A stretch of DNA of 64,000 bases from an uncultured bacterium (lineage in GTDB: Bacteria; Oederibacteriota; JAAXVQ01; JAUVAV01). The DNA lies in the NCBI GenBank assembly GCA_963710755.1, contig CAVQBK010000003.1:416001-480000 (forward strand). The letters are read 5' to 3'. The notes under the pieces are model-generated. The model was not told the origin of the DNA. It saw nothing but the letters and a program-made list of their open reading frames with translations, and searched no databases. Shown piece after piece: positions 27,465-58,385 of the stretch (positions are counted from its first letter, which is position 1; each line of letters opens with the position of its first letter). Both the position numbers and the translations under genes were made by a program.

Positions 27465-30400
27465 ATGAGCCCTAAAAAGACAACTTCCAAAACTGGTTCT
27501 GCTTCCTCAAAAAAAACCAAGGCCGTTAAAAAAGCCGTCCGTGGCGGCGCCAAAAAAACGGTCCGGCCGGCTGCGGCCAAACCAAGCCGGCCACAACCCA
27601 AAAAAGCAGTGAAAAAAACAGCTGTCAAAAAAGCGGCGGCTAAAAAGGCCATAGCTAGAAAAACCACCGTAAAAAAAACCAGGGTCAGGATGGTAAGCCC
27701 GTCCCGTTTTCATCAAGCGCTTGGTTCCTGGTGGCAACGTCTGAAGGCGCAAATGGCAGGGCTTTATCAGCGCGAGCCGGAGACCATCTGGCTGGCCGGA
27801 CTGATGCTGGTGGCTGCGGGATTACGGTTTATTCAACCGGACTGGTATATGGCCCGGCAATTTCATCCCGACGAACGCTGGATCGTCGGCGTGGTCAGCC
27901 AGCTCTCCTACCCGCAGGAGCCGGCGGGCTTGCAGTACGGCACCTTTCCCATGTATTTGCTGGCCCTGATCAAAGACCTGGTGGCAACCGCAGCCGGATG
28001 GTTCGGCCATTTTGATGTCAACCGGTTCACCATCTGGGCGGGCCGCATGCTCAGCGCTTGTTTTGATTTGGGCACGATTGTGTTCACCTACCTCATCGGC
28101 CGGCGCCTGCGGCCAGGACAATTAGGGCGGCAGATCGGGCTGATGGCCGCGGCCTTGCTGACCTTCACGGTGCTCAATATTCAAATGGCCCATTTCTTTG
28201 TGGTCGATGTGCCCCTGGGCTTGTTGGCCACAGCCACCTTGTATTGGAGTATTCTCATTGCCCAGGAGGGCAGGCGGCGTGATTATGTGTTGGCAGGACT
28301 CATGATCGGCTTGGCGCTGGCCACCAAGACCAGTGCCTTTCCTTTAGTGGCCGCTGTGGGCATGGGCCATCTGCTGGGCCTCAATCAAAGTCCGGTGAGT
28401 GACCGCGTCCGGCGCTGGCAGGAATTGGGCCTGGCGGTGGGGGTTTCACTGGTGACCTTTTTCATAGCCATGCCCTATGCGTTTCTCGATTGGTCCAAGT
28501 TTTGGAGCAACCAGCAGGAACAGCAGCGTATCCTGGTCACGGGCAAGGCGGATGTGCCCTACAACCGCCAATACCTGCACACCACTGCTTATCTTTACTA
28601 CTTCCGCAATTTGATCCGCTACACCCAGGGCTGGAGTCTGGGGCTGCTGTCGGTTCTTGCCATTCTGCTGGTGCCCTTGGCGGGGATCATTCAAAGTGCC
28701 CGGTTACTGATGTCCAAACAAGTCAAAGCCTGGCGCCGCTGGCTTAATCGGGAAAGCGTGCTGCTGGTGCTCATGGCGTTTGCGATTCTGTATTTTGCCA
28801 TTGTGGGCCATGCCTTTGCCAAGTTCAATCGCTACATGTTGCCGCTCACGCCTATCTTCAGTCTGATCGTGGCCTGGGTTCTGATGCAGGCTTATCATGG
28901 ACTGCGCGTCCACTGGCAGCGCCGGCTGGGCCAGGTTGTATTAGTCATGGTGCTGGCCAACACTATCCTGTGGGCCTTGGCTTTTGTCTCCATATACCAG
29001 CAGGAACATCCCTGGATTGCCGCCAGCCGCTGGATTCAGACGCATGTACCGGAAAAAACCATGAAAAACGGCATTCCCTTTCCTACGGCTATTCTCAACG
29101 AAGAATGGGGCGACGATCTGCCCACCTATGTACCTGGTTTGGCCCATACCAGACATTATGCTATGAATAAATTCGCAGTGCAGGAACCGGATACCCCGGC
29201 CAAACGACAGGCCATTTTAGCCATGCTCCAGAAAAACGATCTGATCGTGATGGCCGATACGCGCGCCCATGCGGTTTATCGCCGGCTGCCGGAACGTTAT
29301 CCCATCAATGCCGCCTATTATCAATTAATGTTTGAAGGCCGTTTGGGGTTTCACCTGGCGGCTGAATTCACCGATTACCCCCGCCTCTTTGGCCATGAAT
29401 TTTCTGACGATGACAGTGATGAAAGTTTTACCCTCTATGATCATCCGCATGTCTATCTTTTTGCCCGCGACCGGACCACCTTGTCTGCCAGGGAACTGGC
29501 CAGCCGTCTGGATAAACGTATTGTCCTGATCAAGGCGCAAGGCCAACATCCCCGTGCACCGGTCAAGACCGTGCCCAAGCTCAAGCATTGGAACATGACC
29601 AAGAAAGAACCCATGCCCACCGTGATTAACAACAATATCGACCAACCGGAAGTACGGCCGGTCTTTCTACTGGGGCGGATCAATAGTTTTAAAGCCGGAT
29701 TAATGTGGGTATTGCTTATGGAGGTCATCGGCCTGTTAACTTTGCCTTTGTGCCTGAGCCTGTTCCCGCGACTGCCTGATGCAGGCGCAGCGTTGAGTAA
29801 AATCATCGGGTCGCTTATTCTGGGCTGGACCATTTGGATGCTGGTTTCTTTGGGCGTGATTCCACATGTGCAAGCCGCCAGTTTTCTGGTACTGGTGGTG
29901 CTGGGCGCCATCAGCCTGACCTGGGCCTGGAAACGAAAGCTGGAGATCGAAACTTTCTTTCGCGAGAAGGGCAGGCTGTGGCTGCTCATGGAACTAATAT
30001 TTCTGCTGGCCTTTGTGGGCTATATGGTGACCAAGCTGTACAATCCCGATATCAACAACCCAACGGGTCAGGGCTATAACGGCGGCGGCGAGCCTATGGG
30101 CATCAGCTTTTTTTCCGCAGTTTATCAAAGTCTCCATTTTCCACCGTATGATCCCTGGTTGTCAGGTTATCACATCAACTATTATTATTACGGCCAGCTG
30201 ATCCTGGGCATTCTGGCCAAGCTGGCGGGGGTCCCACCGGTCTGGTCTTATCAAATTGTCATTAGTCTGCTCTTTGCTTTGACCTTTACCGGCGTCTTTG
30301 GTCTGGGTCTGGCCCTGACCGGCAAAAAACGATGGGGCTTGTTCTCGGCCGTGGCTGCGGCCATGCTGGGCAACATGCATACCTATTTTTATATGCTGGA

Positions 30401-32276
30401 ACCCATCAACCGCGGTCTCAACTGGAATAACCTGGGCCAGAGTCTGGCCATGCTCTGGAAAAGTTTCTGGCTCCATCTGGGCCGGTTTGAATTCATCTGG
30501 AATCCCACCCGTCTGATTAAAGGTACCATCAATGAAATGCCCTGGTTCTCTTTTCTCTATGGGGATTTGCACGCCCATATCATTGCCATTCCTTACTCCC
30601 TGCCTTTAATCGGCTGGGCAGCCAACCTGCTGACACCGGTAAGCAAAACCAACACCGTGTTGCCCGAAGTCAGCGGCCGCACCGGCACGGAGCGGGGCTT
30701 GTCTTTCTTTGTCACCGCCCTGACCCTGGGGGCCTTATCGGCCATCAATACCTGGAATTTTCCACCCTATGCCTTGCTGGTGCTGGCCGTGCTGATCGTC
30801 CAGGCACTGCAAGACTATAAGGGCGGTCCCTTGCCCTGGCGGGCCTTGGGCAAGGCGGTTTTAGGATGGCTCAGACTGGTGGTGGGCGGCCTGGTGTTGC
30901 TGCTTTACTTCCACATTCATTTTAAACCCCAATCCACCAGCCTGGCCTTGGTCAATCCTGCGGTCCGAACCCATCTCAAGGAATTTATGATCTTCTTCAG
31001 CCTGCCGCTGTTTTTGTTGATCAGTTTCACTGCCCAACACTTGGTGAGCAGCGGTCGGGCTTTGTTAAGCACACTGGGCTGGAAACCACGGTCCCGCAAA
31101 CCGTGGTGGCAAAAAGTGGTGGCTATACTCAACACCTTTTGGGCCAAATACCCCGTGGCGGTTTATATTATCTTGGCGGCCTTGCTGGGGGCCGGACTGC
31201 TGCTCTTGTTTAATCAAGTCACGTTGGTGGTGCTGGGCTTGTTGGTCCTGGCTCTGATCTATGTGCTGGTCTGGAAGCCCTTGGCCCCGGGCCTGCGCCT
31301 GGCCATGATCATGGCGATGCTTGGTTTCTTAATTGTGCTGGGCTGTGAGATTGTACACGTGCGCGATTTCATGGGGGTTGGCGGTGACATGAGCCGCATG
31401 AATACGGTGTTTAAATTTTATATGGTCGTGTGGATCTATCTGGCGCTGGCGGCCGGGGCTGTGGCGCACCATCTTCTGGAAGGCAGCAGCCAGGTCTTGG
31501 CTTCCTGGCGGAAAGTGTTTGTGCAACAACAATGGCTGCCCTGGCTGGGGTACCTCTTGGGCCTGTTCGTGCTTGCGGCCATGGCCAACTACCAACAGGA
31601 AAATACCGGCACGCCTTGGCTAACGTGGCTGCTGTTTTCAGCTCTGATCCTGCTGCCGCTGGTCTGGGCCATCCGGCCGGAGCTGGCACAACTGCGCAGG
31701 CTGTGGATGGCCGTGCTGGGTTTTGTGTTGATCACCGTGGCCCTTTATCCGCCTATTGCGCTCTACAACCGCATGCACCTGTGCTCCAATTTCGAGCATC
31801 CTACCCTAAACGGTGTGGCTTACCTGGAGCGCCTGCTGCCCAAGGAAGCCAAAGCCTTGCGCTGGATCGACGAGCACGTGGACCGCATGGCCATTATTTT
31901 GGAAGCTCCCGGTAAACGGGGATATAACTGTTTTGATACGCGCATTGCCATCTTTACCGGCCATCCGTCCCTGATTGGGTGGGTGGGGCAGGAAGAACAA
32001 ATGCGCTACAACGGGTTATTGACCGGCAGCCGCACCGAGGATGCAGATCGCATCTACAGGACGCTTAGTATCAAGGAAGCCCAAGCCCTATTGAGACGCT
32101 ACCATGTTGGCTATGTTTTCGTGGGTCTCAACGAACAGGCCGCCTATCCCCGGGCCGGACTGGAAAAATTGGGACGGTTCATGGATCTGGTCTATGATCA
32201 GGACGGGATCAAAATTTATCAAATGCGACAATACGCAGAGGAGGATACACAAGATGGTGAAACCAAAACAAAATGA
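27465..32276 (+). CDS. Large membrane protein: Lys/Ala-rich N-tail + PMT-like GT-C domain + DUF2298 (YYY) domain
   Basis: FHPDER, GRMLSA.FD, AHFFVVD (PMT_2-like); PPYDPWLSG..INYYYYG, INEMPWFSFLYGDLHAH, RMNTVFKFY (DUF2298); many TM helices. Confidence 0.85.
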   Translation: MSPKKTTSKTGSASSKKTKAVKKAVRGGAKKTVRPAAAKPSRPQPKKAVKKTAVKKAAAKKAIARKTTVKKTRVRMVSPSRFHQALGSWWQRLKAQMAGLYQREPETIWLAGLMLVAAGLRFIQPDWYMARQFHPDERWIVGVVSQLSYPQEPAGLQYGTFPMYLLALIKDLVATAAGWFGHFDVNRFTIWAGRMLSACFDLGTIVFTYLIGRRLRPGQLGRQIGLMAAALLTFTVLNIQMAHFFVVDVPLGLLATATLYWSILIAQEGRRRDYVLAGLMIGLALATKTSAFPLVAAVGMGHLLGLNQSPVSDRVRRWQELGLAVGVSLVTFFIAMPYAFLDWSKFWSNQQEQQRILVTGKADVPYNRQYLHTTAYLYYFRNLIRYTQGWSLGLLSVLAILLVPLAGIIQSARLLMSKQVKAWRRWLNRESVLLVLMAFAILYFAIVGHAFAKFNRYMLPLTPIFSLIVAWVLMQAYHGLRVHWQRRLGQVVLVMVLANTILWALAFVSIYQQEHPWIAASRWIQTHVPEKTMKNGIPFPTAILNEEWGDDLPTYVPGLAHTRHYAMNKFAVQEPDTPAKRQAILAMLQKNDLIVMADTRAHAVYRRLPERYPINAAYYQLMFEGRLGFHLAAEFTDYPRLFGHEFSDDDSDESFTLYDHPHVYLFARDRTTLSARELASRLDKRIVLIKAQGQHPRAPVKTVPKLKHWNMTKKEPMPTVINNNIDQPEVRPVFLLGRINSFKAGLMWVLLMEVIGLLTLPLCLSLFPRLPDAGAALSKIIGSLILGWTIWMLVSLGVIPHVQAASFLVLVVLGAISLTWAWKRKLEIETFFREKGRLWLLMELIFLLAFVGYMVTKLYNPDINNPTGQGYNGGGEPMGISFFSAVYQSLHFPPYDPWLSGYHINYYYYGQLILGILAKLAGVPPVWSYQIVISLLFALTFTGVFGLGLALTGKKRWGLFSAVAAAMLGNMHTYFYMLEPINRGLNWNNLGQSLAMLWKSFWLHLGRFEFIWNPTRLIKGTINEMPWFSFLYGDLHAHIIAIPYSLPLIGWAANLLTPVSKTNTVLPEVSGRTGTERGLSFFVTALTLGALSAINTWNFPPYALLVLAVLIVQALQDYKGGPLPWRALGKAVLGWLRLVVGGLVLLLYFHIHFKPQSTSLALVNPAVRTHLKEFMIFFSLPLFLLISFTAQHLVSSGRALLSTLGWKPRSRKPWWQKVVAILNTFWAKYPVAVYIILAALLGAGLLLLFNQVTLVVLGLLVLALIYVLVWKPLAPGLRLAMIMAMLGFLIVLGCEIVHVRDFMGVGGDMSRMNTVFKFYMVVWIYLALAAGAVAHHLLEGSSQVLASWRKVFVQQQWLPWLGYLLGLFVLAAMANYQQENTGTPWLTWLLFSALILLPLVWAIRPELAQLRRLWMAVLGFVLITVALYPPIALYNRMHLCSNFEHPTLNGVAYLERLLPKEAKALRWIDEHVDRMAIILEAPGKRGYNCFDTRIAIFTGHPSLIGWVGQEEQMRYNGLLTGSRTEDADRIYRTLSIKEAQALLRRYHVGYVFVGLNEQAAYPRAGLEKLGRFMDLVYDQDGIKIYQMRQYAEEDTQDGETKTK

Positions 32277-37681: not shown

Positions 37682-37716
37682 AAAAAAATGGAACCCATCT
37701 GGCGGCTAGTTAAACT
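37682..37716 (+). promoter_or_regulatory. Putative ECF-sigma autoregulatory promoter
   Basis: A-tract+TGGAACC...TAGTTAAACT; similar motif at 42431-42465. Confidence 0.5.
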
Positions 37717-37766: not shown

Positions 37767-38375
37767 ATGGAACCTCAGGGGATGGTTTTTAGCACTATAG
37801 GGGCGGGACTAAGTGACGACCAACTGATTGATCTGGTGTTGGATGGCCAGGAGCAAGCCTTCAATCAATTGGTTCACAAGTATCAAGGACGGATTTACAA
37901 TTATGCTTTTTATTTACTTCACAGTCCCGACGAGGCGCAAGACGTGACCCAGGAAACATTTATTCGAGCCTACATGAACTTAAGCAAGTTCAGGCGGGAA
38001 GCCAGTTTAATAACCTGGCTTTACCGCATTGCGGCCAATACAGCCTATCAGGCCATGAGAAAACTGGTGAAACACCGGAGGATAAAAGAAAAAGCGGTTC
38101 AGGAGCAGCCACGCGATCCAGCCAACACGGTGACACCGGAAGACCATTTTAGGACCAGTGAAGCCCAACGCCACCTTCTGGGAGCGCTGGATAAATTAAG
38201 ACCCAAGCATAAACAGGTCTTGATTTTAAAGGAGCTGCAAGGGCTGGATGTGTTGGAAGTAGCCAAAATCTGCGGTGTGCCGGAGGGAACCATCAAATCC
38301 AGACTCAACCGTGCACGTCTGGAATTACGCCGCCAACTGGTTCGCGGTGCCGGCAAAGGAGGGGGGCAATCATGA
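37767..38375 (+). CDS. ECF-family RNA polymerase sigma factor
   Basis: AQDVTQETFIRAY, TWLYRIAAN, PEGTIKSRLNRAR. Confidence 0.95.
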   Translation: MEPQGMVFSTIGAGLSDDQLIDLVLDGQEQAFNQLVHKYQGRIYNYAFYLLHSPDEAQDVTQETFIRAYMNLSKFRREASLITWLYRIAANTAYQAMRKLVKHRRIKEKAVQEQPRDPANTVTPEDHFRTSEAQRHLLGALDKLRPKHKQVLILKELQGLDVLEVAKICGVPEGTIKSRLNRARLELRRQLVRGAGKGGGQS

Positions 38376-39391
38376 GCTGTCCCACTTACCGCCGTTTGAC
38401 AACCCATTATTACAGTATGACCGATACTCCGAAAAAGCGGCGGCAGCTGGAAGCCCACAGTCAAAGGTGTCCATCCTGCCAGCGGCTGTTGCACCAGCAG
38501 AAGGAATTGAGTCAACGCTTGACGGCTCTACCGGAGGTGCTACCTGCGAAGCCAGTGTTGCCATCCATTTGGCAGGGTATTGAGGCTAGAAAACAGGCTG
38601 CCTCTTCGAGAGCTTTTCAGCGGCTGTATGCGCCCTGGGCCTGGGGTTTGGCGGCTACTGCTGTTCTAGCCATAGTTCTCATGATGCCCCTGTTGCTGCA
38701 GCATAAAGCTCATCAGGCTCAAGGCCTCAAGGTAGCCAAACAAATCGTCGGGCCGGACATAACCAGGTCCAACGCTGATCAGCAAGCCCCCTTGTCCGTG
38801 GTGATTGCACGGCAACAGGCGGAAGTCGAACGCCATCAAAATCAACCTGCTTCTGAACGAAAATTAAATCGTCGTCAAGAGCACCAGGTGGCCATAATTC
38901 CGGACAATAATAAAAATCCAAATGTTCCTGCGCAAACCAGCCAACCGCCAAGGCAACATCTGGCCAAGAACCATGAGCAAACGCATGTGCACGACCAGAA
39001 CTCTCTAAAAAACGGCAGCATCATGCTCGATCAGTACCAAGGCAGCCGGGTGCTCAGCGCCCAACAACCAGGCTCTCGACAGGTTATGGAAACAACATCC
39101 AGCCAGGAAGGGTTTCGGTTGTTTAATAATATGCTTAATCTCAATAAGGGGGGAACCACGCGCATTACCTTGGTGCTTCAAGAAAGTCTGGAGGTCAAGG
39201 TGACCATTTACAGCCGCAGCGGCCGCGTGGTAAAACCATTGGCGGATGAACACCTTGGGGCCGGCCAGTATGAGTGGCAGTGGAACGGTACGACCAGCAG
39301 CGGCAGTCAGGCGGCCAGCGGAATTTACTTTATGGTCTGCCAACTGCAAGGCCACAAGCCGGTTACCTATAAGGTGATGGTGGTTAAATAA
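38372..39391 (+). CDS. Zinc-binding anti-sigma factor with TM helix and C-terminal FlgD-Ig/T9SS-CTD-like domain
   Basis: HSQRCPSC (HxxxCxxC); TM WAWGLAATAVLAIVLMMPLLL; tail IYSRSGRVV..L...WNG....G....SGIY; ATGA overlap with the sigma gene. Confidence 0.85.
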   Translation: MSCPTYRRLTTHYYSMTDTPKKRRQLEAHSQRCPSCQRLLHQQKELSQRLTALPEVLPAKPVLPSIWQGIEARKQAASSRAFQRLYAPWAWGLAATAVLAIVLMMPLLLQHKAHQAQGLKVAKQIVGPDITRSNADQQAPLSVVIARQQAEVERHQNQPASERKLNRRQEHQVAIIPDNNKNPNVPAQTSQPPRQHLAKNHEQTHVHDQNSLKNGSIMLDQYQGSRVLSAQQPGSRQVMETTSSQEGFRLFNNMLNLNKGGTTRITLVLQESLEVKVTIYSRSGRVVKPLADEHLGAGQYEWQWNGTTSSGSQAASGIYFMVCQLQGHKPVTYKVMVVK

Positions 39392-39407
39392 ATTGGGGAG
39401 CAGGCAC

Positions 39408-40259
39408 ATGAATGGACAGGCCAAAATAGTCTTATCGGTGATAGGGCTGATGCTTTGGGGCCACAGCGTCTTGGCGGATACGGCAACGCCCACGGCTACT
39501 GTTACTTTCACAGCAACGCCATTGGTATCAGCCACCTCAACCATAACGCTTACGGCCACACCGTCCAAAACCGTCACGCCCAGCGCTACACCTACATTTA
39601 CCCGTACGCCCAATGCTACATTGACCAGTACTATCAGCGCCACCTATACGGTCAGTCCGACATGGACGTCAACCGGCACTAGCACTCATACGCCCACCAA
39701 TACCATGACTTGTACACCTACTTCCACGTGGACCTCAACCCCCATGGATACTGTCACCTTCACACCGACCAGCACCATCAGTACCACCATGTCGGCCACC
39801 TCCACAGCCACTCCGACTGCCACTCCTTCCGCGACGGTCACGAGCAACTCATCGGCCACAGTAACTCCTACTGTGACCATGACCCCCACCGTGACCCCAA
39901 CGCCTCCATCAGGGCTGGCTACCAGTACCTCCACATCAACAGCTACAGCCACGTCGGCCGCTAGTCTCCCCACGGTGGTACCGGCTGAAATATTGGGTAA
40001 TGTGATGAATCTCAATGAACGAAAACCGGCGCGCATCCGGGTGCAACTGGATCATCCCCAAAAAGTAAGAATCGTGATTTATACCCAGCGGGGACGGATT
40101 GTTAAGGAACTTGCAGATGAGCTGGTTTCAGCAGGTACCTTTGAGGCTGTGTGGGACGGCGGTAACCGCTACGGTCAGTTGGTGCCGGCTGGGATTTATA
40201 TTGTTTATATTCAAACCGAACGCTTCCAGGAGAAAAAGCGTATAGCGATCGTGCATTAA
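39408..40259 (+). CDS. Exported Thr/Ser/Pro-rich (mucin-like) protein with C-terminal FlgD-Ig/CTD-like domain
   Basis: Signal peptide (..SVLA-D), about 165 aa of T/S/P-rich sequence, tail IYTQRGRIV.EL...WDG.N..G..V..GIY. Confidence 0.85.
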   Translation: MNGQAKIVLSVIGLMLWGHSVLADTATPTATVTFTATPLVSATSTITLTATPSKTVTPSATPTFTRTPNATLTSTISATYTVSPTWTSTGTSTHTPTNTMTCTPTSTWTSTPMDTVTFTPTSTISTTMSATSTATPTATPSATVTSNSSATVTPTVTMTPTVTPTPPSGLATSTSTSTATATSAASLPTVVPAEILGNVMNLNERKPARIRVQLDHPQKVRIVIYTQRGRIVKELADELVSAGTFEAVWDGGNRYGQLVPAGIYIVYIQTERFQEKKRIAIVH

Positions 40260-40305: not shown

Positions 40306-42351
40306 ATGAGCCTAAGGCAAGTTAGAACATCATGGCGACTCAGGCTTAAAGGTCTGATGCTGATCGGACTTTTAAGCCTGGTCACAGGCCTGCGAGCATC
40401 AACGGGCGCTGAATTTTTGCGTCCCGAAAGCTCGCCCAACGCCACCGTGATGATGGGCGGCTCGGCTCTGGAAGGGGGCTCGGCCATGCTGGCCATCAAT
40501 CCGGCCGGTTTGTTGGGCCAAGCCTATGCCTCGCTGGCGTTTACCCATTATGCCTCGTTTGTGGAAACAGCCTATGAGCAAATGGAATTTTTGTGGCCTG
40601 CCCAACCAGGATTGGCCTGGGCAGGCCGGTTGTTTTATGACAGCACCTATAACTTTGTGGCTATTAATGATTTAGGCGAACGCGTGGCCACGGTGGACAA
40701 TTACGACTTACTGCTCAACCCAGCAGTGGCCTGGCGCCTGGATCCTATGTTGGATTTGGGCGTAGGGCTTAAATTATTTCGCAGTGTTATTGCCAGCTAC
40801 AGCAGCATGGGCGCAGCTGCGGATATTGGCGTTCAGGTGCACTGGCCCGGCATGCCTCTGAGCTTGGGAGCCTCGCTGCAGAATCTTGGTATGATGACCG
40901 CCTATGATCAACAGGCCGACAGCCTGCCTTTGGCCTTGACTTTGGGCGGAGCCTGGGACGTGAATTTTGGTATCAATCAATTAATCTTGACGGCGGATCT
41001 CACCACCGGCTTTGATGAGCATCGACCGCTCACACCCATTGCAGGCATGGAATACCACTATGCGTCACTGGCCAGCGTGCGCCTGGCTTATCGGATGGAT
41101 GAGGAATTGGGTAATATCATCGTTGGGGCCGGGGTGCAATGGCGGCGGTTGGGTCTGGATTATTCCTATCAACCCTACGGCGTGTTGGGTGAAAATCACC
41201 GCTTGACCTTGTCTTATTATTTCAGGTCCCTTGCGCAAGAAAAACCACACTCAAGTGCTGAAGCGGTTTTGGCGGAAGAAACGCCGCAACTGAAAGCCCA
41301 ATCTTTGACCAAGCAAAAAGTGGCGGTTTTAACCGAGCTGCCTAGAACTTACAATGCCAAATTAACCTTCATGCCTTTGCTTAAAAGAGGTCCTTTCAAA
41401 CCCTGGAACCTTACTATTACTAATGACCAGCAGCAGACCATTCGCCAGTTTTACGGAGACGAGCGACTGCCCCAACGGATCAGCTGGGACGGCATGAATA
41501 ACCAAGGCCAGCCTCTGCTTCAATCGCAAACCTGCACCATCACCCTGGACGTTGATGGAAAAACCAGAGCCCGGCAGGAAATGCCCATCATGGCACCGGC
41601 GGTCAGGTTAATGTTACCACAGGACGTAGCGTTGCCTGTGCCGGTGATTTTTCAAATGTCCAGGCCTCTGGCCACGCGCGGTTGGACCTTACAGGTAATG
41701 ACGCCTTCAGCAGCCCCGACCGGAACAAATATTATTATGAAAGGGACGCCTTCGGCAGCCCCGACCGGAACAAATATTATTATGAAAGGGACGCCTTCGG
41801 CAGCCTCCTTTAGCGGGCAAGGGGCATGGAAGGACCCCGTGACGTGGGTTAGTACGGTGAATGATACTCACCTCAGTTATGAACTGGAATTGGTGACGGA
41901 TCAGCCCATAAAAGTGATCTTGAAGGAGCCGATCAAGACAGTAACGGCTTCAACCATTATGGCTCCGGAAGGTTATGAAGGATTGAAGATCAGCGGTGTC
42001 CTTTTTGATTTTAACCAAGCCGCGTTAAAGCCCGAAATGGCGGACAAGTTGCAAGCCGTGAGTCAATTGCTGGCCTATTATCCACAGGACCTGTATGTCA
42101 TATGTGAAGGCCATGCTGATGAAGTGGGGGACCAGGCTTATAACCAAACTTTGTCCGAAAAACGGGCCCAGATGGTGGCGGAAAAATTGGTGCGTGACAG
42201 CGGTGTCAGCCAGGACCGGGTAAGCATTAAAGGCTACGGCCAAGCCCGGCCTGAAAACAGCCTGGGCACGCCGGAAGGCATGGCCCGCAATCGGCGTGTG
42301 GACATCAAGGTGTTTTTCCCTGTAAATCTTGCCAAAAAAACCGGCAAATAA
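40306..42351 (+). CDS. PorV/PorQ-like beta-barrel fused to a FlgD-like segment and C-terminal OmpA domain
   Basis: GAEFLR...MGG...INPAGL start, alternating barrel strands ending DYSY.PYG.LG..HR.TLSY.F; WDGMNNQG; VLFDF..A.L, EGHAD, N..LS..RA, NRRVDI. Confidence 0.85.
   Translation: MSLRQVRTSWRLRLKGLMLIGLLSLVTGLRASTGAEFLRPESSPNATVMMGGSALEGGSAMLAINPAGLLGQAYASLAFTHYASFVETAYEQMEFLWPAQPGLAWAGRLFYDSTYNFVAINDLGERVATVDNYDLLLNPAVAWRLDPMLDLGVGLKLFRSVIASYSSMGAAADIGVQVHWPGMPLSLGASLQNLGMMTAYDQQADSLPLALTLGGAWDVNFGINQLILTADLTTGFDEHRPLTPIAGMEYHYASLASVRLAYRMDEELGNIIVGAGVQWRRLGLDYSYQPYGVLGENHRLTLSYYFRSLAQEKPHSSAEAVLAEETPQLKAQSLTKQKVAVLTELPRTYNAKLTFMPLLKRGPFKPWNLTITNDQQQTIRQFYGDERLPQRISWDGMNNQGQPLLQSQTCTITLDVDGKTRARQEMPIMAPAVRLMLPQDVALPVPVIFQMSRPLATRGWTLQVMTPSAAPTGTNIIMKGTPSAAPTGTNIIMKGTPSAASFSGQGAWKDPVTWVSTVNDTHLSYELELVTDQPIKVILKEPIKTVTASTIMAPEGYEGLKISGVLFDFNQAALKPEMADKLQAVSQLLAYYPQDLYVICEGHADEVGDQAYNQTLSEKRAQMVAEKLVRDSGVSQDRVSIKGYGQARPENSLGTPEGMARNRRVDIKVFFPVNLAKKTGK
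41701..41805 (+). repeat. In-frame 45-bp tandem repeat (2.3 copies)
   Basis: ACGCCTTC(A/G)GCAGCCCCGACCGGAACAAATATTATTATGAAAGGG at 41701 and 41746, partial at 41791. Confidence 0.95.
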
Positions 42352-42380
42352 GACTTTAAACCGGTCGAGCCGTTACGCCT

Positions 42381-42410
42381 TGTAGGGAACGGTCGCGACC
42401 GGTCCCCACA
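42381..42410. repeat. GTAG-type REP palindrome
   Basis: TGTAGGGAACGGTCGCGACCGGTCCCCACA, imperfect stem. Confidence 0.65.
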
Positions 42411-42430: not shown

Positions 42431-42465
42431 AAAAAAAAATGGAACCTCCTAGTCAATAGTTGACT
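42431..42465 (+). promoter_or_regulatory. Putative ECF-sigma promoter for the second module
   Basis: A-tract+TGGAACC...TAGTTGACT. Confidence 0.5.
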
Positions 42466-42509
42466 CTCTTCTTTGTTATCAATAACCACCAGTTAAAGGA
42501 GAGGGATCA

Positions 42510-43802
42510 ATGAGGACTTTTAAAAGAATTGCGTTTTTGCTTTTACTAACACTGGCCTGTCTGCACCAGGCCGGACTCGCCAACACGGCAGTACCCACTT
42601 TCTCGCCAACGGTCACATTCACAGCAACTGGGACGCCCACGGTGACGGTGACACCAATGAGTAGCACGCCGACAGCAGTCTTCACGGCCACGATTACGCC
42701 CACTCGGACGAGCACAGCCACACCGGTTGGAACCGTGCCTGCCGGTTCAACGAAAACCGCTACAGCCACAGCGACGCATACGGCCACAGTGGCGGTGACA
42801 CCAATGAGTAGCACGCCGACAGCAGTCTTCACGGCCACGATTACGCCCACTCGGACGAGTACCGCCACACCGGTTGGAACCGTGCCTGCCGGTTCAACGA
42901 AAACCGCTACAGCCACAGCGACGCATACGGCCACAGTGGCGGTGACACCAATGAGTAGCACGCCGACAGCAGTCTTCACGGCAACGATTACGCCCACTCG
43001 GACGAGCACAGCCACGCCGGTTGGAACCGTGCCTGCCGGTTCAACGAAAACCGCTACAGCCACAGCGACGCATACGGCCACAGTGGCGGTGACACCAATG
43101 AGTAGCACGCCGACCGCGGTGTTCACGGCCACGATTACGCCCACTCGGACGAGCACAGCCACGCCGGTTGGAACCGTGCCTGCCGGGTCAACGAAGACCG
43201 CTACGGCCACGTCGACCCGGACCCCGATAGCGACCTCCACAGCGGCTGGTACAGCGGTTGCCACCCATACGCCCACTAAAACACCCACGCAGTCACCAGG
43301 CACACCGGCTCTAACCGCCACTCGTACCGCTACGGCCACGATGACGTTTACTGTGACCAGCACGCCCCAAGGTGAGGTCACCACTGCGCCCACTGCCACC
43401 GGCACAGCAACCCCTATGGCCACCTCCACACCGGTCAACACGGCCACGCCCAGCGGCATGGTCTCCACCTCCACGGTAACCGTCACCACCACGGCCATTG
43501 CCACCGCTTCAGCGCCAAAAGTGGAAGCCAAGGTTTACGGCAGCGTGGTGAATCCAGCCAAAACCGAGAGCGCCCACATTCAGGTGCACCTGGATAAGCC
43601 CCAGAAAGTTCAGGTTATCATTTACAATCAAAGAGGACAGGTGGTCAGGACTTTGGTCGACGCAGTGAAAGACGCCGGAACCTTTGATGCCGTATGGCAG
43701 GGCGTGAACCGCCATGGCCAGGTCGTGTCCTCCGGAATTTACGTGGTGTATATCAAGACAGATACTTTCCAAGCCAAAAAACGCATCGTGGTTATTCGAT
43801 AG
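42510..43802 (+). CDS. Exported Thr-rich tandem-repeat protein with C-terminal FlgD-Ig/CTD-like domain
   Basis: Signal peptide (..AGLA-N); 49-aa repeats; tail clearly homologous to that of 39408..40259. Confidence 0.88.
42648..43211 (+). repeat. 147-bp (49-aa) tandem repeat, about 3.8 near-identical copies
   Basis: CCAATGAGTAGCACG recurs at 42654, 42801, 42948 and 43095 (period 147). Confidence 0.95.
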
Positions 43803-43811
43803 GAGGACGAG

Positions 43812-44747
43812 ATGGGCATGCTAGTTACTATACATATGAAAAAGGTTTGTAAAACCGGGGTTATGATCGCCATGCTGGCGGGGTTGGCCTCGGTCCTAGG
43901 GACACCTTTGTTGGCCCTAACCGGGGCGGATTTCCTGCGCCTGGAAAGCTCGCCCAATGCAGCAGTCATGATGGGTGGAGCGGCTTTATCCGGCACGCCG
44001 GCTATGTTGGCGGTTAATCCGGCAAGCTTGTTGGGCCAACAGGAACCATCGATCTCCTTTTCCCATTTTGCGTCCTTTGCTCTAACCGGGTATGAACAGT
44101 TGGAAGGGGTGATACCTCTCGGTTCCCATCTGGCTGTAGGCGGACGACTATTTTATGACAGTGCCTATGGTCTGGCGGATATTGATCTTGAGGGTAATAA
44201 TCAGGGTACCATTGCCAATTATGATTTGCTGGTCAATCCGGCCATGGCGGTTAAAATCAACGAGTTGCTCAACCTGGGTGTGGGGCTCAAAGGATTCCAA
44301 AGCGTGCTCTTTGATTATTCCAGTGTGGGTGCTGCCCTGGATATGGGGGTGCATTTTCAGGTGCCTGGTCTGGGGCTGAGCCTGGGTGCGTCCATGCAGA
44401 ACCTCGGTTTTATGACCGCCTACAACACCGTGCAGGAACAACTGCCTCTGAGCTTTGATCTGGGCGCGGCCTATCAATGGCTGAGCGGTCCGCATCAATT
44501 CACTGTGCTTGGTGATGTCACCACCGTGGTGGAGGAATATCAAACCCTGACCCCCATACTGGGGGCAGTCTATCGCTATGGCGGTTTGGCCTCTGTGCGC
44601 GTGGCCTACCGCTTGGACCAGGAGTTGGGCAATTTAATGGTCGGCGCCGGTTTAACCTGGCAGGCTATCGGCGTGGCTTATGCCTACCAGCCCTTGGGTG
44701 CCTTGGGGGACAATCACCGCTTCAGTGTTTCCTACCTTTTCAAATAG
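43812..44747 (+). CDS. PorV/PorQ-like outer-membrane beta-barrel
   Basis: Paralog of the N-half of 40306..42351 (GADFLRLESSPNAAVMMGG, VNPASLLG, RLFYDS, NHRFSVSYLFK). Confidence 0.85.
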   Translation: MGMLVTIHMKKVCKTGVMIAMLAGLASVLGTPLLALTGADFLRLESSPNAAVMMGGAALSGTPAMLAVNPASLLGQQEPSISFSHFASFALTGYEQLEGVIPLGSHLAVGGRLFYDSAYGLADIDLEGNNQGTIANYDLLVNPAMAVKINELLNLGVGLKGFQSVLFDYSSVGAALDMGVHFQVPGLGLSLGASMQNLGFMTAYNTVQEQLPLSFDLGAAYQWLSGPHQFTVLGDVTTVVEEYQTLTPILGAVYRYGGLASVRVAYRLDQELGNLMVGAGLTWQAIGVAYAYQPLGALGDNHRFSVSYLFK

Positions 44748-46402: not shown

Positions 46403-47092
46403 ATGATCTACGGTATTTATCAAACCGCGACCAGTCTGGACAGTTTGAACCGCATGCAGGATGTGGTGGCCAACAACCTGGCCAACATGACCACTAATGG
46501 CTTTAAACAGGAACTGCTGCAGGTCATGAAAAATGAACCGGGCCGCCTCAGTGTGGCCAGTCAGGTGGATATGAGCGCCGGGCCCATCAAGATGACCGAC
46601 AATCCCACCGATCTGGCCATAACCAGCGACGGTTTTTTTGCTGTGCAGAGCGAGGACGGCGTGGCCTACACCAGAAGCGGTGATTTTAAATTAGACAGTA
46701 CTGGCCGGTTGGTGACCAATGAGGGCCTGCCGGTACTGGGTAAACACGGCGAGATTCTGATCGGTACCAATAAATTTACGGTCAACGGCCAGGGCGAAAT
46801 TTTTGTGGGACAGGACCAGGTAGACCAGCTCGAACTCTTCAAGCCCCAGGGACCAATGGTCAGAATCGGGCAGCGCCTGCTTAAATCGGAAGTGCCCGAT
46901 CAAATGGTGGCCATGGACAACAACAACGTTAAGATCATGCAGGGTGCTGTGGAAGCCTCCAATGTCAATCCAGTGGAGGCGATGGTCAACATGATGCTCA
47001 TCGTGCGCCAATACGAGGCCAATCAGAAAGCCATGAGCGTGCAGGACGAAAGTATTCGCCCCGTAATTACTCAGGTAGGCAAGCATACTTAA
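46403..47092 (+). CDS. flgF: Flagellar basal-body rod protein FlgF-like
   Basis: ANNLAN..T.GFK, YTRSGDF, EASNVNPVEAM. Confidence 0.85.
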   Translation: MIYGIYQTATSLDSLNRMQDVVANNLANMTTNGFKQELLQVMKNEPGRLSVASQVDMSAGPIKMTDNPTDLAITSDGFFAVQSEDGVAYTRSGDFKLDSTGRLVTNEGLPVLGKHGEILIGTNKFTVNGQGEIFVGQDQVDQLELFKPQGPMVRIGQRLLKSEVPDQMVAMDNNNVKIMQGAVEASNVNPVEAMVNMMLIVRQYEANQKAMSVQDESIRPVITQVGKHT

Positions 47093-47112
47093 TTGCAGCA
47101 GGAGGATGACCC

Positions 47113-47895
47113 ATGTTAAGAGCCTTGATGATTTCAGCCACCGGCATGTCGGCCCAACAACTGGCCATGGACAACATTTCCAACAATCTGGCCAATGTCA
47201 ATACCACGGGCTTCAAGGCCTCTCAGGCCAAGTTCGCCGATATTTTTTATCAGGCTATCAACGAACCGCAGCCTTTGGGTCCGGTGGAAAATAACCAGCC
47301 CTCCGTGGGTATTGGTGTGCAAAATACGTCCATGGAACGATCCTTTCTGCAAGGCGCTTTGGAAAGCACCGGCAATCCGCTGGATATGGCGGTGCAGGGC
47401 GACGGGTTTTTTCAGGTACTTCAGCCGGACGGCAGTATGGCCTACACTCGTGACGGATCTTTCAAAGTGAGTGGTGACGGTCTGTTGTGCACCAATCAGG
47501 GTTATCCGGTTCAGCCGGAAGTGCAAATTCCTGCTGATGCCTCGGAAGTCAATGTGGCGGCCGACGGTACGGTGCTGGTGAAGGGACTGAACGATACCAC
47601 GCCCCGGCCTATAGCCCAGTTGGAACTGGCCCGGTTTGTTAACCCCGGTAGTCTGGAAAGCCTGGGTCAAAACCTGTATGCCTCTTCTACGGCTTCCGGT
47701 GAGGCTATCGTCAGCACTCCTGGCCAGGAAGGGCTGGGCAGTCTGGTGCAGGGGAGCTTGGAACGGTCCAATGTCAACTTGGTGCAGGAAATGGTGAATA
47801 TGATCATGACGCAACGGGCTTATGAAATTAACACCAAATCCATTCAGGCAGCGGATGACATGATGAAGATGGCCAATAATTTAAGGAGAATTTAA
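47113..47895 (+). CDS. flgG: Flagellar distal rod protein FlgG
   Basis: SNNLANVNTTGFK, YTRDGSF, SNVNLVQEMVNMIMTQRAYEIN. Confidence 0.95.
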   Translation: MLRALMISATGMSAQQLAMDNISNNLANVNTTGFKASQAKFADIFYQAINEPQPLGPVENNQPSVGIGVQNTSMERSFLQGALESTGNPLDMAVQGDGFFQVLQPDGSMAYTRDGSFKVSGDGLLCTNQGYPVQPEVQIPADASEVNVAADGTVLVKGLNDTTPRPIAQLELARFVNPGSLESLGQNLYASSTASGEAIVSTPGQEGLGSLVQGSLERSNVNLVQEMVNMIMTQRAYEINTKSIQAADDMMKMANNLRRI

Positions 47896-57362: not shown

Positions 57363-58349
57363 ATGATGAAAAAAATTGGATTATTAAGCTTGCTGGTTTT
57401 GCTCACGTTCAGTCTGGCCCAGGCCGACATTCCTAAGATTATTCATTTTCAAGGCCGGTTGACTGACCTGAGTGGTGTTCCCATAAGCGAGGGCGGTCAT
57501 GGCATTACGTTTAATCTTTGGGATGCCGAAACCGGGGGGAACCTCTTATGGACAGGGAATTATACGGTATCGACCAAAAGCGGCTACTACAGTATAGATC
57601 TTGGTGACAGCCCTAGTCCTTTTCCGGCGGCCATGACGTTTGATCAACCTTATTATCTGGATCTGCAAGTTGGAGGAGATCCTGATGTATTAAGCCCCCG
57701 TATCAAACTGGACAGTGCAGCCTATGCCATGAATGTTGCCGACAATGCCATTGTGACTACCAAGCTCAAAGACGGCGCCGTGACGGAGGCTAAACTGGCC
57801 GACAGCGCCGTGACCACTGCCAAACTGGACGACAGCGCCGTAACCAACGCTAAACTTGCCTATCATGCTATTACGGCAGACAAGATGGAGAACAGTGCGG
57901 TCATTACCGACAAAATTGCCGACAATGCCGTGACCACAACCAAGGTAGCCGACAGTGCGGTCACCAATGCCAAACTTGCCGCGGGCGCGGTGACGGGAAG
58001 TAAAATTACGGACGGGTCGGTAACCGCAACCAAAATTGCCAATGGTGCTGTGAATTCTCAAGCCAAAGCACCTTATGCGCCAGAAGTTTATTTTAATGGT
58101 ACCAGGACACCTAATATTAAAATACTTACCGGATCAAGCGGGACTAATGCTTCAGGATATGAAAAAGTCAATTTTCCAACAAACTTTTTTAGCACGCCGC
58201 CAAGAGTTTTTTTTACGGCCAGTAACAACACTTATTTAGTAGCGATGGATCTGCAAAGTGTTACCAAAGATTATTTTGAAGTTTGGTCAAGATATATGAA
58301 CAGTCAAGCATTTCCAACGAGTTATCAGTGGATGGCCATCGGATATTAG
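57363..58349 (+). CDS. Exported fibre/adhesin-like protein with 10-aa repeats
   Basis: Signal peptide (AQA-D); FQGRLTD..G N-domain; about 10 repeats of D(S/N/G)AVT.AK(L/I)A; C-terminal V.F...F...P.V ... YQWMAIG domain. Confidence 0.8.
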   Translation: MMKKIGLLSLLVLLTFSLAQADIPKIIHFQGRLTDLSGVPISEGGHGITFNLWDAETGGNLLWTGNYTVSTKSGYYSIDLGDSPSPFPAAMTFDQPYYLDLQVGGDPDVLSPRIKLDSAAYAMNVADNAIVTTKLKDGAVTEAKLADSAVTTAKLDDSAVTNAKLAYHAITADKMENSAVITDKIADNAVTTTKVADSAVTNAKLAAGAVTGSKITDGSVTATKIANGAVNSQAKAPYAPEVYFNGTRTPNIKILTGSSGTNASGYEKVNFPTNFFSTPPRVFFTASNNTYLVAMDLQSVTKDYFEVWSRYMNSQAFPTSYQWMAIGY

Positions 58350-58385
58350 AGCTATTTATAACCTGTTTTTGATGGGATCACCATA

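Follow-up and report, generated by a model that had tools for sequence, protein, structure and literature searches.

A putative membrane-bound anti-sigma factor with a predicted cargo-type sorting domain, encoded beside PorV-like barrels in an uncultured soil phylum

The open reading frame (ORF) at 38372..39391 on the forward strand of a 64,000-nucleotide stretch of bacterial DNA (GenBank assembly GCA_963710755.1, contig CAVQBK010000003.1, positions 416,001 to 480,000; this whole stretch is called the window below, and coordinates refer to it) encodes a protein that we predict to be the membrane-bound anti-sigma factor of the extracytoplasmic function (ECF) sigma factor encoded just upstream, with binding and inhibition of the sigma factor predicted likewise. 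Judged by sequence and modeled fold, this protein ends in a cargo-type C-terminal domain (CTD) that resembles those used in type IX secretion systems (T9SS) and falls into the same subclass as the tails of the secreted proteins, here called cargo, that are encoded next to it. Within the host phylum, which is FCPU426-like, uncultured and from soil, a dedicated clade of PorV-like barrels appears to travel with the sigma/anti-sigma pair.

The anti-sigma ORF spans 339 aa (start MSCPTYRRL...), and its ATG overlaps the stop of the ECF sigma ORF (37767..38375) by 4 bases, an arrangement that points to co-transcription of the two genes. The protein can be divided into four parts:

38372..38626, + strand: zinc-type anti-sigma domain, predicted cytoplasmic, residues 1-85, with the C3, H29, C33, C36 motif and a family-level match to RsiW

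38639..38710, + strand: single transmembrane helix, residues 90-113, from the AlphaFold2 model and hydrophobicity

38711..39103, + strand: disordered, predicted periplasmic spacer, residues 114-244, Q-rich, with a predicted local distance difference test (pLDDT) value mostly <50 and no secondary structure

39104..39391, + strand: predicted cargo-type C-terminal sorting domain, residues 245-339, ending in ...YKVMVVK, plus the stop codon; FlgD_ig match, pLDDT 96-98

The AlphaFold2 model, for which an alignment of 35 homologues served as input, contains a helical N-domain (residues 4-85, pLDDT about 76-95), a long helix at residues 90-113 that coincides with the sole strongly hydrophobic stretch of the protein (top 19-residue window starting at residue 91, mean Kyte-Doolittle value 2.27), the unstructured spacer of ~130 residues, and a beta-sandwich formed by the last 95 residues up to the exact C-terminus. 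In zinc-binding anti-sigma domains, the upstream Cys or His ligand lies ~23-26 residues before H-x3-C-x2-C. A regular-expression search placed the latter motif at residue 29 of our ORF, with C3 as the upstream ligand, giving C3-x25-H29-x3-C33-x2-C36. The ORF itself does not reach the Pfam zf-HC2 model and stays below the cut-off of the NCBIfam anti-sigma models (NF052375, 34.9 bits against a cut-off of 100), so that its assignment is based on the motif, the gene position directly after the sigma gene, the sub-cut-off NCBIfam matches and the match of the family profile to RsiW. Because the domain predicted to bind the sigma factor lies in the cytoplasm, a protein with just one membrane helix must have its tail in the periplasm. 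No Sec signal peptide is present in the ORF, the N-terminus being taken up by the cytoplasmic anti-sigma domain, followed by the membrane anchor; the protein would therefore not be exportable as a whole and is better viewed as the carrier of a sorting domain than as ordinary cargo. These results bear out in every part the description in a sequence-only reading of the window, with an HxxxCxxC zinc motif, one transmembrane helix and a low-complexity linker of ~130 aa; its proposed inner-membrane tether, holding the tail outside the cytoplasm, is in keeping with a single helix. Its designation of a zinc anti-sigma domain stands as regards the motif and the RsiW match at the family level, but the window protein misses zf-HC2.

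An exhaustive protein search returned 5480 proteins at E<=0.001, most of them matching through the tail only, and 34 at E<=1e-10. Of the best 150 matches 39 were fetched, and six of these were left out of the alignment (four cargo-like proteins that lack an anti-sigma domain and two anti-sigma domains that have no tail); the remaining 33 were aligned end to end with the protein P0002 (45% identical) and the window protein (n=35). The combination of zinc motif, transmembrane helix and FlgD_ig domain, for which the sequence-only reading had proposed an architecture search, recurs in 35/35 aligned homologues, with the motif at residues 20-33, the hydrophobic helix starting at 76-95, and the tail in terminal position. 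Invariant throughout are H29, C33, C36, N253, G298, W304, G306 and Y319. The tail is the best-conserved part of the protein: its mean pairwise identity is 34%, while the anti-sigma domain reaches 23% and the spacer 13%. The spacer measures 125-182 residues in all 35 members (median 144), its composition ranging from K-rich to P/A-rich; being conserved in length, not in sequence, it has the appearance of a periplasm-spanning tether. Positions 1-75 of the family profile match the cytoplasmic domain of Bacillus subtilis RsiW (5wuq_C, 1.6e-10), followed by RslA (3hug_B, 1.9e-4), with ChrR and RsrA also weakly matched. Among the 35 members, Pfam models were matched as follows: FlgD_ig in 35, zf-HC2 in 21 and, at E<=0.01, CHU_C in 18 and Por_Secre_tail in 4. 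Two of the homologue clusters carry the source names 'anti-sigma factor RsiW' and 'hypothetical protein'.

The nearest HtpG relative with a name (65% identity) comes from a 'candidate division FCPU426 bacterium', and the genome of this relative has its anti-sigma match at the same position as G025, which belongs to the family of the window genome; the phylum is therefore called FCPU426-like. Profile matches were obtained in 99/99 genomes of the phylum that were searched, many of them through tails alone. Near-full-length copies, recognized by both profile ends, occur in at least 45/99 genomes from at least 16/23 families among the matches listed; a further 1276 profile matches lie beyond those listed, which makes 45/99 a lower bound. 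Some genomes hold 2-4 copies (G041, G092, G074, G088, G094). In two outgroup genomes, an Elusimicrobia and an Ozemobacteraceae metagenome-assembled genome, only separate tail or anti-sigma-domain matches were found (0/2 with full copies). A search of genome contigs with the single window protein as query returned no relative, and the scores of 0.81-0.85 obtained for it from a protein atlas are below the level at which a match means much.

The nature of the tail was addressed by profile, sequence and structure comparisons. The Pfam model FlgD_ig matches residues 259-319 of the anti-sigma protein (2.7e-10, 40.5 bits, cut-off 27), CHU_C gives a match below cut-off (3.3e-4, 21.2 bits, cut-off 27), TIGR04183 (Por_Secre_tail) likewise (16.4 bits, cut-off 23), and PF18962 was not reported in the Pfam scan. 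Residues 245-339 form an Ig-like sandwich within the 80-100-residue size range, located at the extreme C-terminus and with a basic end. In the tail alignment, identity to the tails of the neighboring ORFs 39393-40259 (cargo 1) and 42510-43802 (cargo 2) amounts to 30% and 25%, respectively, over about 100 columns, as the sequence-only reading had seen when it lined up the three tails. The window genome (3.44 Mb, 98% complete) was analyzed by ORF calls and iterated hidden Markov models seeded on the tails and barrels of the window, and 62 of its ORFs end in a FlgD_ig-type tail. When the anti-sigma tail was compared by BLASTP with the 61 others, to which small set alone the E-values refer, the cargo 1 tail ranked best (38% over 74 aa) and the cargo 2 tail fourth (33% over 67 aa). 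The HxxxCxxC motif is confined to 1/62 terminal-tail ORFs, namely the anti-sigma factor, and the majority of the remaining ones begin in a signal-peptide-like manner, as judged by eye. Since the anti-sigma ORF is the sole one among 62 with the motif and the same architecture recurs in all 35 aligned homologues, the combination is more than chance.

Column comparison of 55 anti-sigma tails with cargo tails yielded a common consensus, v...iY...G..v...G.....W.G....g..vasGiY, and a terminal K or R is present in 52/55 anti-sigma tails, 21/24 locus cargo tails and 52/59 other cargo tails. Structural alignment with VIA-align ranked the CTD of Porphyromonas gingivalis PorU first (6za2_A: Z 11.0, root-mean-square deviation 2.4 A over 90 residues, 24% identity); the PorZ CTD followed with Z 9.3 at 21% identity, and generic Ig-like rows came out at Z 9-10 with 9-18% identity. 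Foldseek alone could not separate T9SS CTDs from other Ig-like domains. In a quick, weakly resolved tree of 104 tails and 85 columns, all 21 anti-sigma tails and all locus cargo tails are placed inside one 48-row subtree (support 82) that contains few other tails of the window genome. Taken together, BLASTP, tree, consensus and structure argue for a cargo-type, T9SS-like CTD of the same subclass as the neighboring cargo tails, in agreement with what the sequence-only reading had proposed. A function as FlgD flagellar hook-cap protein was considered and rejected, as the match to FlgD is limited to the Ig-like domain (profile positions 262-318 against 7eh9_A), the N-terminus is an anti-sigma domain, and the neighbors are a sigma gene, cargo and barrels rather than a flagellar context.

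The module in which the anti-sigma gene is embedded contains five further genes on the same strand:

37767..38375, + strand: ECF sigma factor, 202 aa; Sigma70_r2 3.3e-17, Sigma70_r4_2 2.6e-13, Sigma70_ECF 4.1e-7; TIGR02937 sigma70-ECF 111 bits, cut-off 42.9

39393..40259, + strand: cargo 1, 288 aa from TTG (ATG at 39408); signal-peptide-like start, Thr-rich low-complexity body, FlgD_ig 3.4e-8 at residues 204-274

40306..42351, + strand: barrel 1; PorV/PorQ-like barrel (residues ~14-306), followed by a middle part and, at 566-663, by an OmpA-like peptidoglycan-binding domain

42510..43802, + strand: cargo 2, 430 aa; signal-peptide-like start, four Thr-rich 49-aa repeats, FlgD_ig 9.7e-10

43812..44747, + strand: barrel 2, 311 aa, PorV/PorQ-like; NF033709 87.6 bits (cut-off 90), T9SS_PorQ 6.4e-21

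Barrel 1 scored 88.4 bits with NF033709 (PorV_fam), slightly below the cut-off of 90, and 5.3e-20 with OmpA; in the six-frame search of the genome, NF033709 gave 90.2 bits for barrel 1 and 86.3 for barrel 2, that is, over and under the cut-off, respectively. A model of barrel 1 residues 1-320 (pLDDT 82.5) found its best Foldseek matches in the PorV chains 8gl6_F (1.1e-12, TM-score 0.74) and 6h3i_F, both from translocon structures in a substrate-bound state, with PorV chains ~four orders of magnitude ahead of FadL-type barrels. The middle part of barrel 1, about 250 residues, includes a weak FlgD_ig-like match (residues 368-404, E 0.16), and a tandem repeat of 45 nt x 2.4 with 98% matches lies in its gene at 41700-41805. 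The same barrel/OmpA fusion is encoded in the closest related loci (L107, L108, L109, L126). The gene for cargo 2 harbors a tandem repeat of 147 nt x 3.9 at 42633-43210, which codes for the Thr-rich 49-residue units; the 96% identity of the repeat units suggests a recent duplication. Cargo 2 passes the TIGR04183 model (29.8 bits, cut-off 23). Apart from the Thr-rich repeats, the Pfam scan recognized no binding or catalytic domain in cargoes 1 and 2; nor did it report the FecR family for the anti-sigma factor or a TonB-dependent receptor in the module. Antisense ORFs at 39005-39643 and 42479-43531 mirror the Thr-rich repeats and were rejected as genes.

To place the module in its wider context, we inspected 11.5-kb spans around 20 copies of the anti-sigma gene from 17 genomes, picked for diversity and contig room, hence not at random, and annotated with hidden Markov models. 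The sigma gene is located directly upstream of the anti-sigma gene in 20/20 loci. A PorV-like barrel and/or a terminal-tail cargo is encoded in 18/20 spans, and both are in 14/20, as compared to a chance level of 23.8% for random 11.5-kb spans of the window genome that contain such a gene; no p-value is attached to this comparison because the relatives are not independent. Gene order varies: sigma / anti-sigma / cargo / barrel, with the barrel OmpA-fused, in the window and the families nearest to it; sigma / anti-sigma / barrel / cargo elsewhere, including an arrangement with a ~1450-aa propeller-cargo after the barrel in L116, L123 and L124; and barrel / sigma / anti-sigma as a third layout. 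Among the eight ECF-like sigma genes of the window genome, only that of the module directly adjoins cargo and barrels. In a quick tree of 59 barrels, built from locus barrels and those of the window genome, the 20 locus barrels form one clade (Shimodaira-Hasegawa-like approximate likelihood ratio test, SH-aLRT, 97) that includes none of the 39 other window-genome barrels; barrel 2 is the sister of barrel 1 within this clade. The type of cargo changes by lineage, from a GH8 hydrolase with propeller and a carbohydrate-binding-module (CBM)-like part (L116, L119) to other propellers, CARDB, or none recognizable. Because the cargo differs among lineages, the conserved core can be described as sigma factor, anti-sigma factor and barrel, and these trees and gene orders argue for a dedicated barrel clade that travels with the sigma/anti-sigma pair.

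A further link between the genes is a promoter-like motif that is present twice in the module:

37682..37711, + strand: promoter-like site P1; A-tract, TGGAACC (37689-37695), 11 nt, TAGTT (37707-37711); 78 nt upstream of the sigma ATG

42431..42461, + strand: promoter-like site P2; A-tract, TGGAACC (42440-42446), 10 nt, TAGTT (42457-42461); 70 nt upstream of the cargo 2 ATG

P1 and P2 have AAAAAAATGGAACC...TAGTT in common, and the pattern TGGAACC-N9-14-TAGTT has only 3 matches on both strands of the 3.44-Mb genome, two of which are P1 and P2. In 12/20 related loci (L108-L112, L114, L116, L117, L120, L123, L124, L126), a lineage-specific motif of the GGAAC-N17-GTC type is present in two copies, one of which precedes the sigma gene and the other, directly, the cargo or a downstream gene. 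Examples are the pair GGAACTAATTTTGGGCGGATTCTGTC and GGAACTAATTTAAGTTATATTCTGTC in L123 and the pair GATGTAACCTTTT...GCGTTTAAT in L112, the latter of the TGTAAC...CGTTT type; L110 and L120 have GAC at the end of the copy nearer to the sigma gene. We estimate that the loose motif alone would produce ~1 chance match per locus, and the weight of this finding is thus on the positions and the extended identity. The sigma factor appears, on this pattern, to drive two units from two promoter copies, one with sigma / anti-sigma / cargo 1 / barrel 1 and the other with cargo 2 / barrel 2. A scan for sigma-70-type promoters and terminators yielded nothing above shuffled sequences at the relevant sites. 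An inverted repeat follows the barrel 1 stop (42360-42403, -24.5 kcal/mol), with a T-run ~20 nt later, just before P2; this predicted hairpin, absent from the output of the terminator scan, may separate the two units as a terminator or processing site. In the closest relatives (L107, L108, L109, L125 and L126), a TPR-like gene extends as far as the sigma gene, and the first codons of the longest sigma ORF contain GGAACC-N14-CCAGTC, an element found again before cargo genes in L108, L109 and L126. Either the true sigma start is further downstream or coding conservation mimics the motif. Owing to this overlap with the first codons of the longest ORF, GGAACC...CCAGTC at the sigma ORF start of L107, L109, L125 and L126 was rejected as a sure promoter.

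Type-IX-like export parts extend well beyond the window. Besides the 62 tailed ORFs, the genome holds 42 PorV/PorQ-like barrels, with many PorV_fam matches above cut-off, and for 25/42 barrels the gene directly upstream, on the same strand, is a tailed ORF, a pairing that looks like a system of private cargo/barrel pairs. Many of the barrels are extended at the C-terminus by 100-550 residues. The Sov/SprA model gives 253 bits (cut-off 200) for a 2138-aa protein (C1:68813-75229), and two roughly 1170-aa tailed proteins (C3:388074-391559 and C3:268917-272438, C3 being the contig of the window) weakly match the peptidase part of PorU (46 bits, cut-off 420). In the region C1:68813-84597, the SprA-like gene has after it three paralogs that encode TonB-dependent receptors of about 735 aa, and LptF/LptG genes come before it on the other strand. 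The genome also encodes an RseP-like M50 protease (C3:999990-1001255, 213 bits). On these matches, the genome has a putative translocon of the type IX kind plus carrier/anchor barrels; a canonical T9SS is not claimed. As to the remainder of the window, two ORFs of 229 and 260 aa at 46403-47895 resemble, by eye, the flagellar rod proteins FlgF/FlgG; if so, the organism would be flagellated as well as type-IX-like. Two very large ORFs lie at 2-7666 (2554 aa, open at the window start) and 27465-32276 (1603 aa), and the stretch 58001-60000, with a guanine plus cytosine (G+C) content of 0.379 as compared to about 0.50-0.55 elsewhere, may be foreign DNA.

How might such a protein work? Class I anti-sigma factors keep the sigma factor bound in the cytoplasm, and they are commonly degraded in several steps, the first of which takes place outside the membrane. 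Our tentative proposal, to which we give somewhat less than an even chance, is that the tail acts as a tethered competitor of cargo for the module's own barrel and translocon, and that its capture frees the sigma factor. Residues 1-~85 would hold the sigma factor in the cytoplasm, one helix would cross the inner membrane, the disordered spacer of about 130-150 residues would span the periplasm, and the last 95 residues would represent a tethered copy of the sorting domain on the module's secreted proteins. On a spacer of ~145 residues, the tail could dock from the periplasm while still anchored and without crossing a membrane. It would do so as a cargo tail does, on the dedicated PorV-like barrel, probably in the pore of the SprA-like translocon, and in competition with real cargo. 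Whenever barrel and translocon had free capacity, the tail would be captured, the periplasmic part would be cut or trimmed, and this would license intramembrane cleavage by the RseP-type protease and liberate the sigma factor, such that more cargo and barrel would be made; once the route was filled by cargo, the anti-sigma factor would be spared and expression would fall. Tail-barrel binding, proteolysis and the sign of the response are inferred here, the sign being a guess. For comparison, the SprA-PorV structural work (PMC10994853) shows that PorV is contacted by a lysine conserved among type A CTDs, and that the step requiring energy is the one in which the carrier-substrate pair is released.

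Several points weigh against this proposal, beginning with the tail itself, which passes only FlgD_ig and remains under the cut-offs of the T9SS-specific models. Foldseek places filamin, C5a peptidase and FlgD domains alongside PorZ/PorU, the fold being a common Ig-like sandwich, and the tail tree, with 85 columns only, is poorly resolved. A simple local duplication could account for the likeness to the next gene's tail. Among the non-random sample of loci, 2/20 (L113, L125) have neither barrel nor cargo in the span, 2 have a barrel only and 2 a cargo only; moreover, neighboring genes are co-inherited, so that matching tail and barrel clades are no proof of contact. GldL, GldM, GldN and GldM_4th found no match in the 98%-complete genome, and since the same models stayed silent in control genomes as well, we do not conclude that these components are absent. 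Finally, the CTD of P. gingivalis PorA acts on PorY in the periplasm, independently of PorV and Sov (PMC12152298), which shows that a sorting domain can signal without contact to the barrel and favors a barrel-independent action in the periplasm.

This precedent, the only published case of a signaling CTD, leads to the main rival explanation, namely that the tail acts at the inner membrane or in the periplasm without a barrel, e.g. by pairing with unexported cargo tails, and senses a cargo backlog. Binding of the PorA CTD to the inner-membrane kinase PorY (same source) makes this conceivable by analogy, and the subclass that the anti-sigma tail has in common with the locus cargo tails would suit tail-to-tail recognition. 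We nevertheless regard it as doubtful: it leaves unexplained why a dedicated barrel clade goes with the sigma/anti-sigma pair, the barrel often being in the same operon directly after the anti-sigma gene, and why the spacer of ~145 residues is conserved in length. Similarly unlikely, in our estimation, is a variant closer to our proposal in which the outer-membrane route would treat the tail as a genuine substrate, the module's PorV-like barrel would capture it in the SprA-like pore, and the cut by a PorU-like surface peptidase would be the site-1 event of regulated intramembrane proteolysis. If true, the module would represent a switch coupled to export and thereby the type-IX equivalent of the FlgM checkpoint, the cargo genes being turned on by free export capacity itself.

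Trans-envelope signaling between an anti-sigma factor and a barrel is an established principle (FecIRA and the polysaccharide utilization locus (PUL) systems of Bacteroidota), and the tail might accordingly be imagined in a standing complex, always on the barrel, which would relay an outside signal, e.g. via surface-held cargo such as the GH8 proteins of related loci, and thus report an environmental substrate. The GH8 glycoside hydrolases with beta-propellers and a CBM-like part in L116 and L119 speak for such a role, as does a barrel that is conserved while the cargo varies. The window cargoes, on the other hand, offer Thr-rich repeats and no recognizable binding or catalytic domain, the module lacks a FecR domain and a TonB-dependent transducer in the Pfam scan, and a PorV-like barrel would have to transmit the signal; all in all, we judge this to be less likely than a barrel-independent mechanism. 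At a lower level of plausibility again, the tail may be a generic Ig-like end domain that caps the spacer or binds an unrelated periplasmic or cell-wall ligand, its likeness to cargo tails being a relic of local duplication and the linkage to barrels a matter of co-regulation. The FlgD_ig fold is indeed widespread, many unrelated Ig-like domains turn up in Foldseek and in VIA-align at Z 9-10, the T9SS-specific models are below cut-off for the protein, and a genome with 62 tails and 42 barrels is crowded with such genes. Such a generic role is at odds with the exact C-terminal place of the domain, its terminal basic residue and the retention of every cargo-tail consensus position throughout the phylum, with a tail that is the most conserved part of the protein, and with 18/20 loci as opposed to 23.8% by chance. 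That the protein is no anti-sigma factor at all, but a surface or periplasmic protein with a membrane anchor whose gene comes after a sigma gene by coincidence, we consider very improbable: the missed zf-HC2 model and the 34.9 bits against an NCBIfam cut-off of 100 would fit, but the complete C-x25-H-x3-C-x2-C motif together with the 4-base overlap with the sigma gene, the H, C and C invariant in 35/35, zf-HC2 in 21/35, the profile matches to RsiW (1.6e-10) and, weakly, to RslA, ChrR and RsrA, and the upstream sigma gene in 20/20 loci contradict it.

Pairs of ECF sigma and anti-sigma factors are among the commonest bacterial signaling devices, and the signal of most of them is not known. Here, the sensor appears to be a copy of the sorting tag of the very proteins that the sigma factor appears to control, and it goes together with a barrel family of the tag-recognizing kind, which provides a testable hypothesis on the signal. 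If the tail engages the barrel or translocon, the module would be a way to match the synthesis of large surface proteins to the capacity of the outer-membrane route, and the idea of signaling by T9SS CTDs (PorA, 2025) would be extended from one protein in Bacteroidota to a fused, phylum-wide design outside Bacteroidota. Dozens of private cargo/barrel pairs, with no GldLMN motor detected, also bear on the working and evolution of type-IX-like export outside Bacteroidota. With promoter, sigma factor, anti-sigma factor, barrel and tails all defined, the module is amenable to a heterologous host.

Among known systems, RsiW/sigma-W of Bacillus subtilis and RseA/sigma-E, which work by stepwise proteolysis (regulated intramembrane proteolysis), are comparable in the anti-sigma N-domain (5wuq_C), the single helix, the extracytoplasmic part and the RseP-like protease in the genome; what differs is the extracytoplasmic part, which in our case consists of a long disordered spacer and a secretion-type sorting domain. 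FecI/FecR/FecA likewise combines an ECF sigma factor, self-regulation, and a proposed contact between the periplasmic end of a single-pass anti-sigma factor and the outer-membrane barrel encoded next to it. The module described here, in contrast, has no FecR domain, TonB-dependent transducer or signaling N-domain, its barrel is PorV-like, and the presumed contact domain is a copy of the cargo sorting tag. FlgM/sigma-28 offers the parallel of an anti-sigma factor that is recognized by the export apparatus whose substrates it controls; however, FlgM is soluble and exported whole via the flagellar type III apparatus, whereas our protein is anchored in the inner membrane, and only its tail could engage the route.

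The closest published precedent is the PorA-PorY/PorX-SigP pathway of P. gingivalis (PMC7712824; PMC12152298). Here, too, a T9SS-type CTD doubles as a signal, and the pathway ends in an ECF sigma factor for secretion-related genes; PorA tethered to the inner membrane still signals, which the authors see as a contribution to the robustness of the secretion system. In the same accounts, PorA is a separate secreted protein with a signal peptide that acts on a histidine kinase, SigP is without such an anti-sigma factor, and PorV and Sov are not needed. In the present case, by contrast, a zinc-type anti-sigma factor carries the predicted sorting domain as a fusion, a dedicated PorV-like barrel goes with it, and the phylum is one other than Bacteroidota. 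Carrier and anchor barrels of T9SS pair with CTD partners as well, PorV with type A cargo and PorU, PorQ with PorZ, and PorP/SprF-like shuttles with type B cargo (PMC12618676), in line with SprA-PorV-substrate structures (PMC10994853). Likeness to these is seen in the PorV fold of barrel 1, in the 25/42 barrels beside a tailed protein, and in a tail that is nearest to the uncleaved CTDs of PorU and PorZ. What sets the present genome apart is that it has dozens of PorV/PorQ-like barrels, each with a type-A-like tail partner, and no detected GldL/M/N motor, and that one of the tail partners is a predicted anti-sigma factor instead of a secreted protein.

Full-text searches of the literature, evaluated by titles and the beginnings of abstracts and with subscription journals and supplements outside their coverage, retrieved, among the papers listed, no description of an anti-sigma factor that ends in a sorting domain, in accord with the sequence-only reading, which knew of no such ECF signaling route. 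In the main text of the ECF reclassification paper, 'FlgD' has 0 occurrences; its supplements might list such an architecture. The individual principles are familiar, namely contact between an anti-sigma factor and an outer-membrane barrel, export of an anti-sigma factor as a substrate, and signaling by a CTD; the fusion of an anti-sigma factor with a sorting domain and the dedicated barrel that goes with it are what these searches did not bring up. The conservation of this design beside the barrel suggests a coupling of gene expression to protein export.

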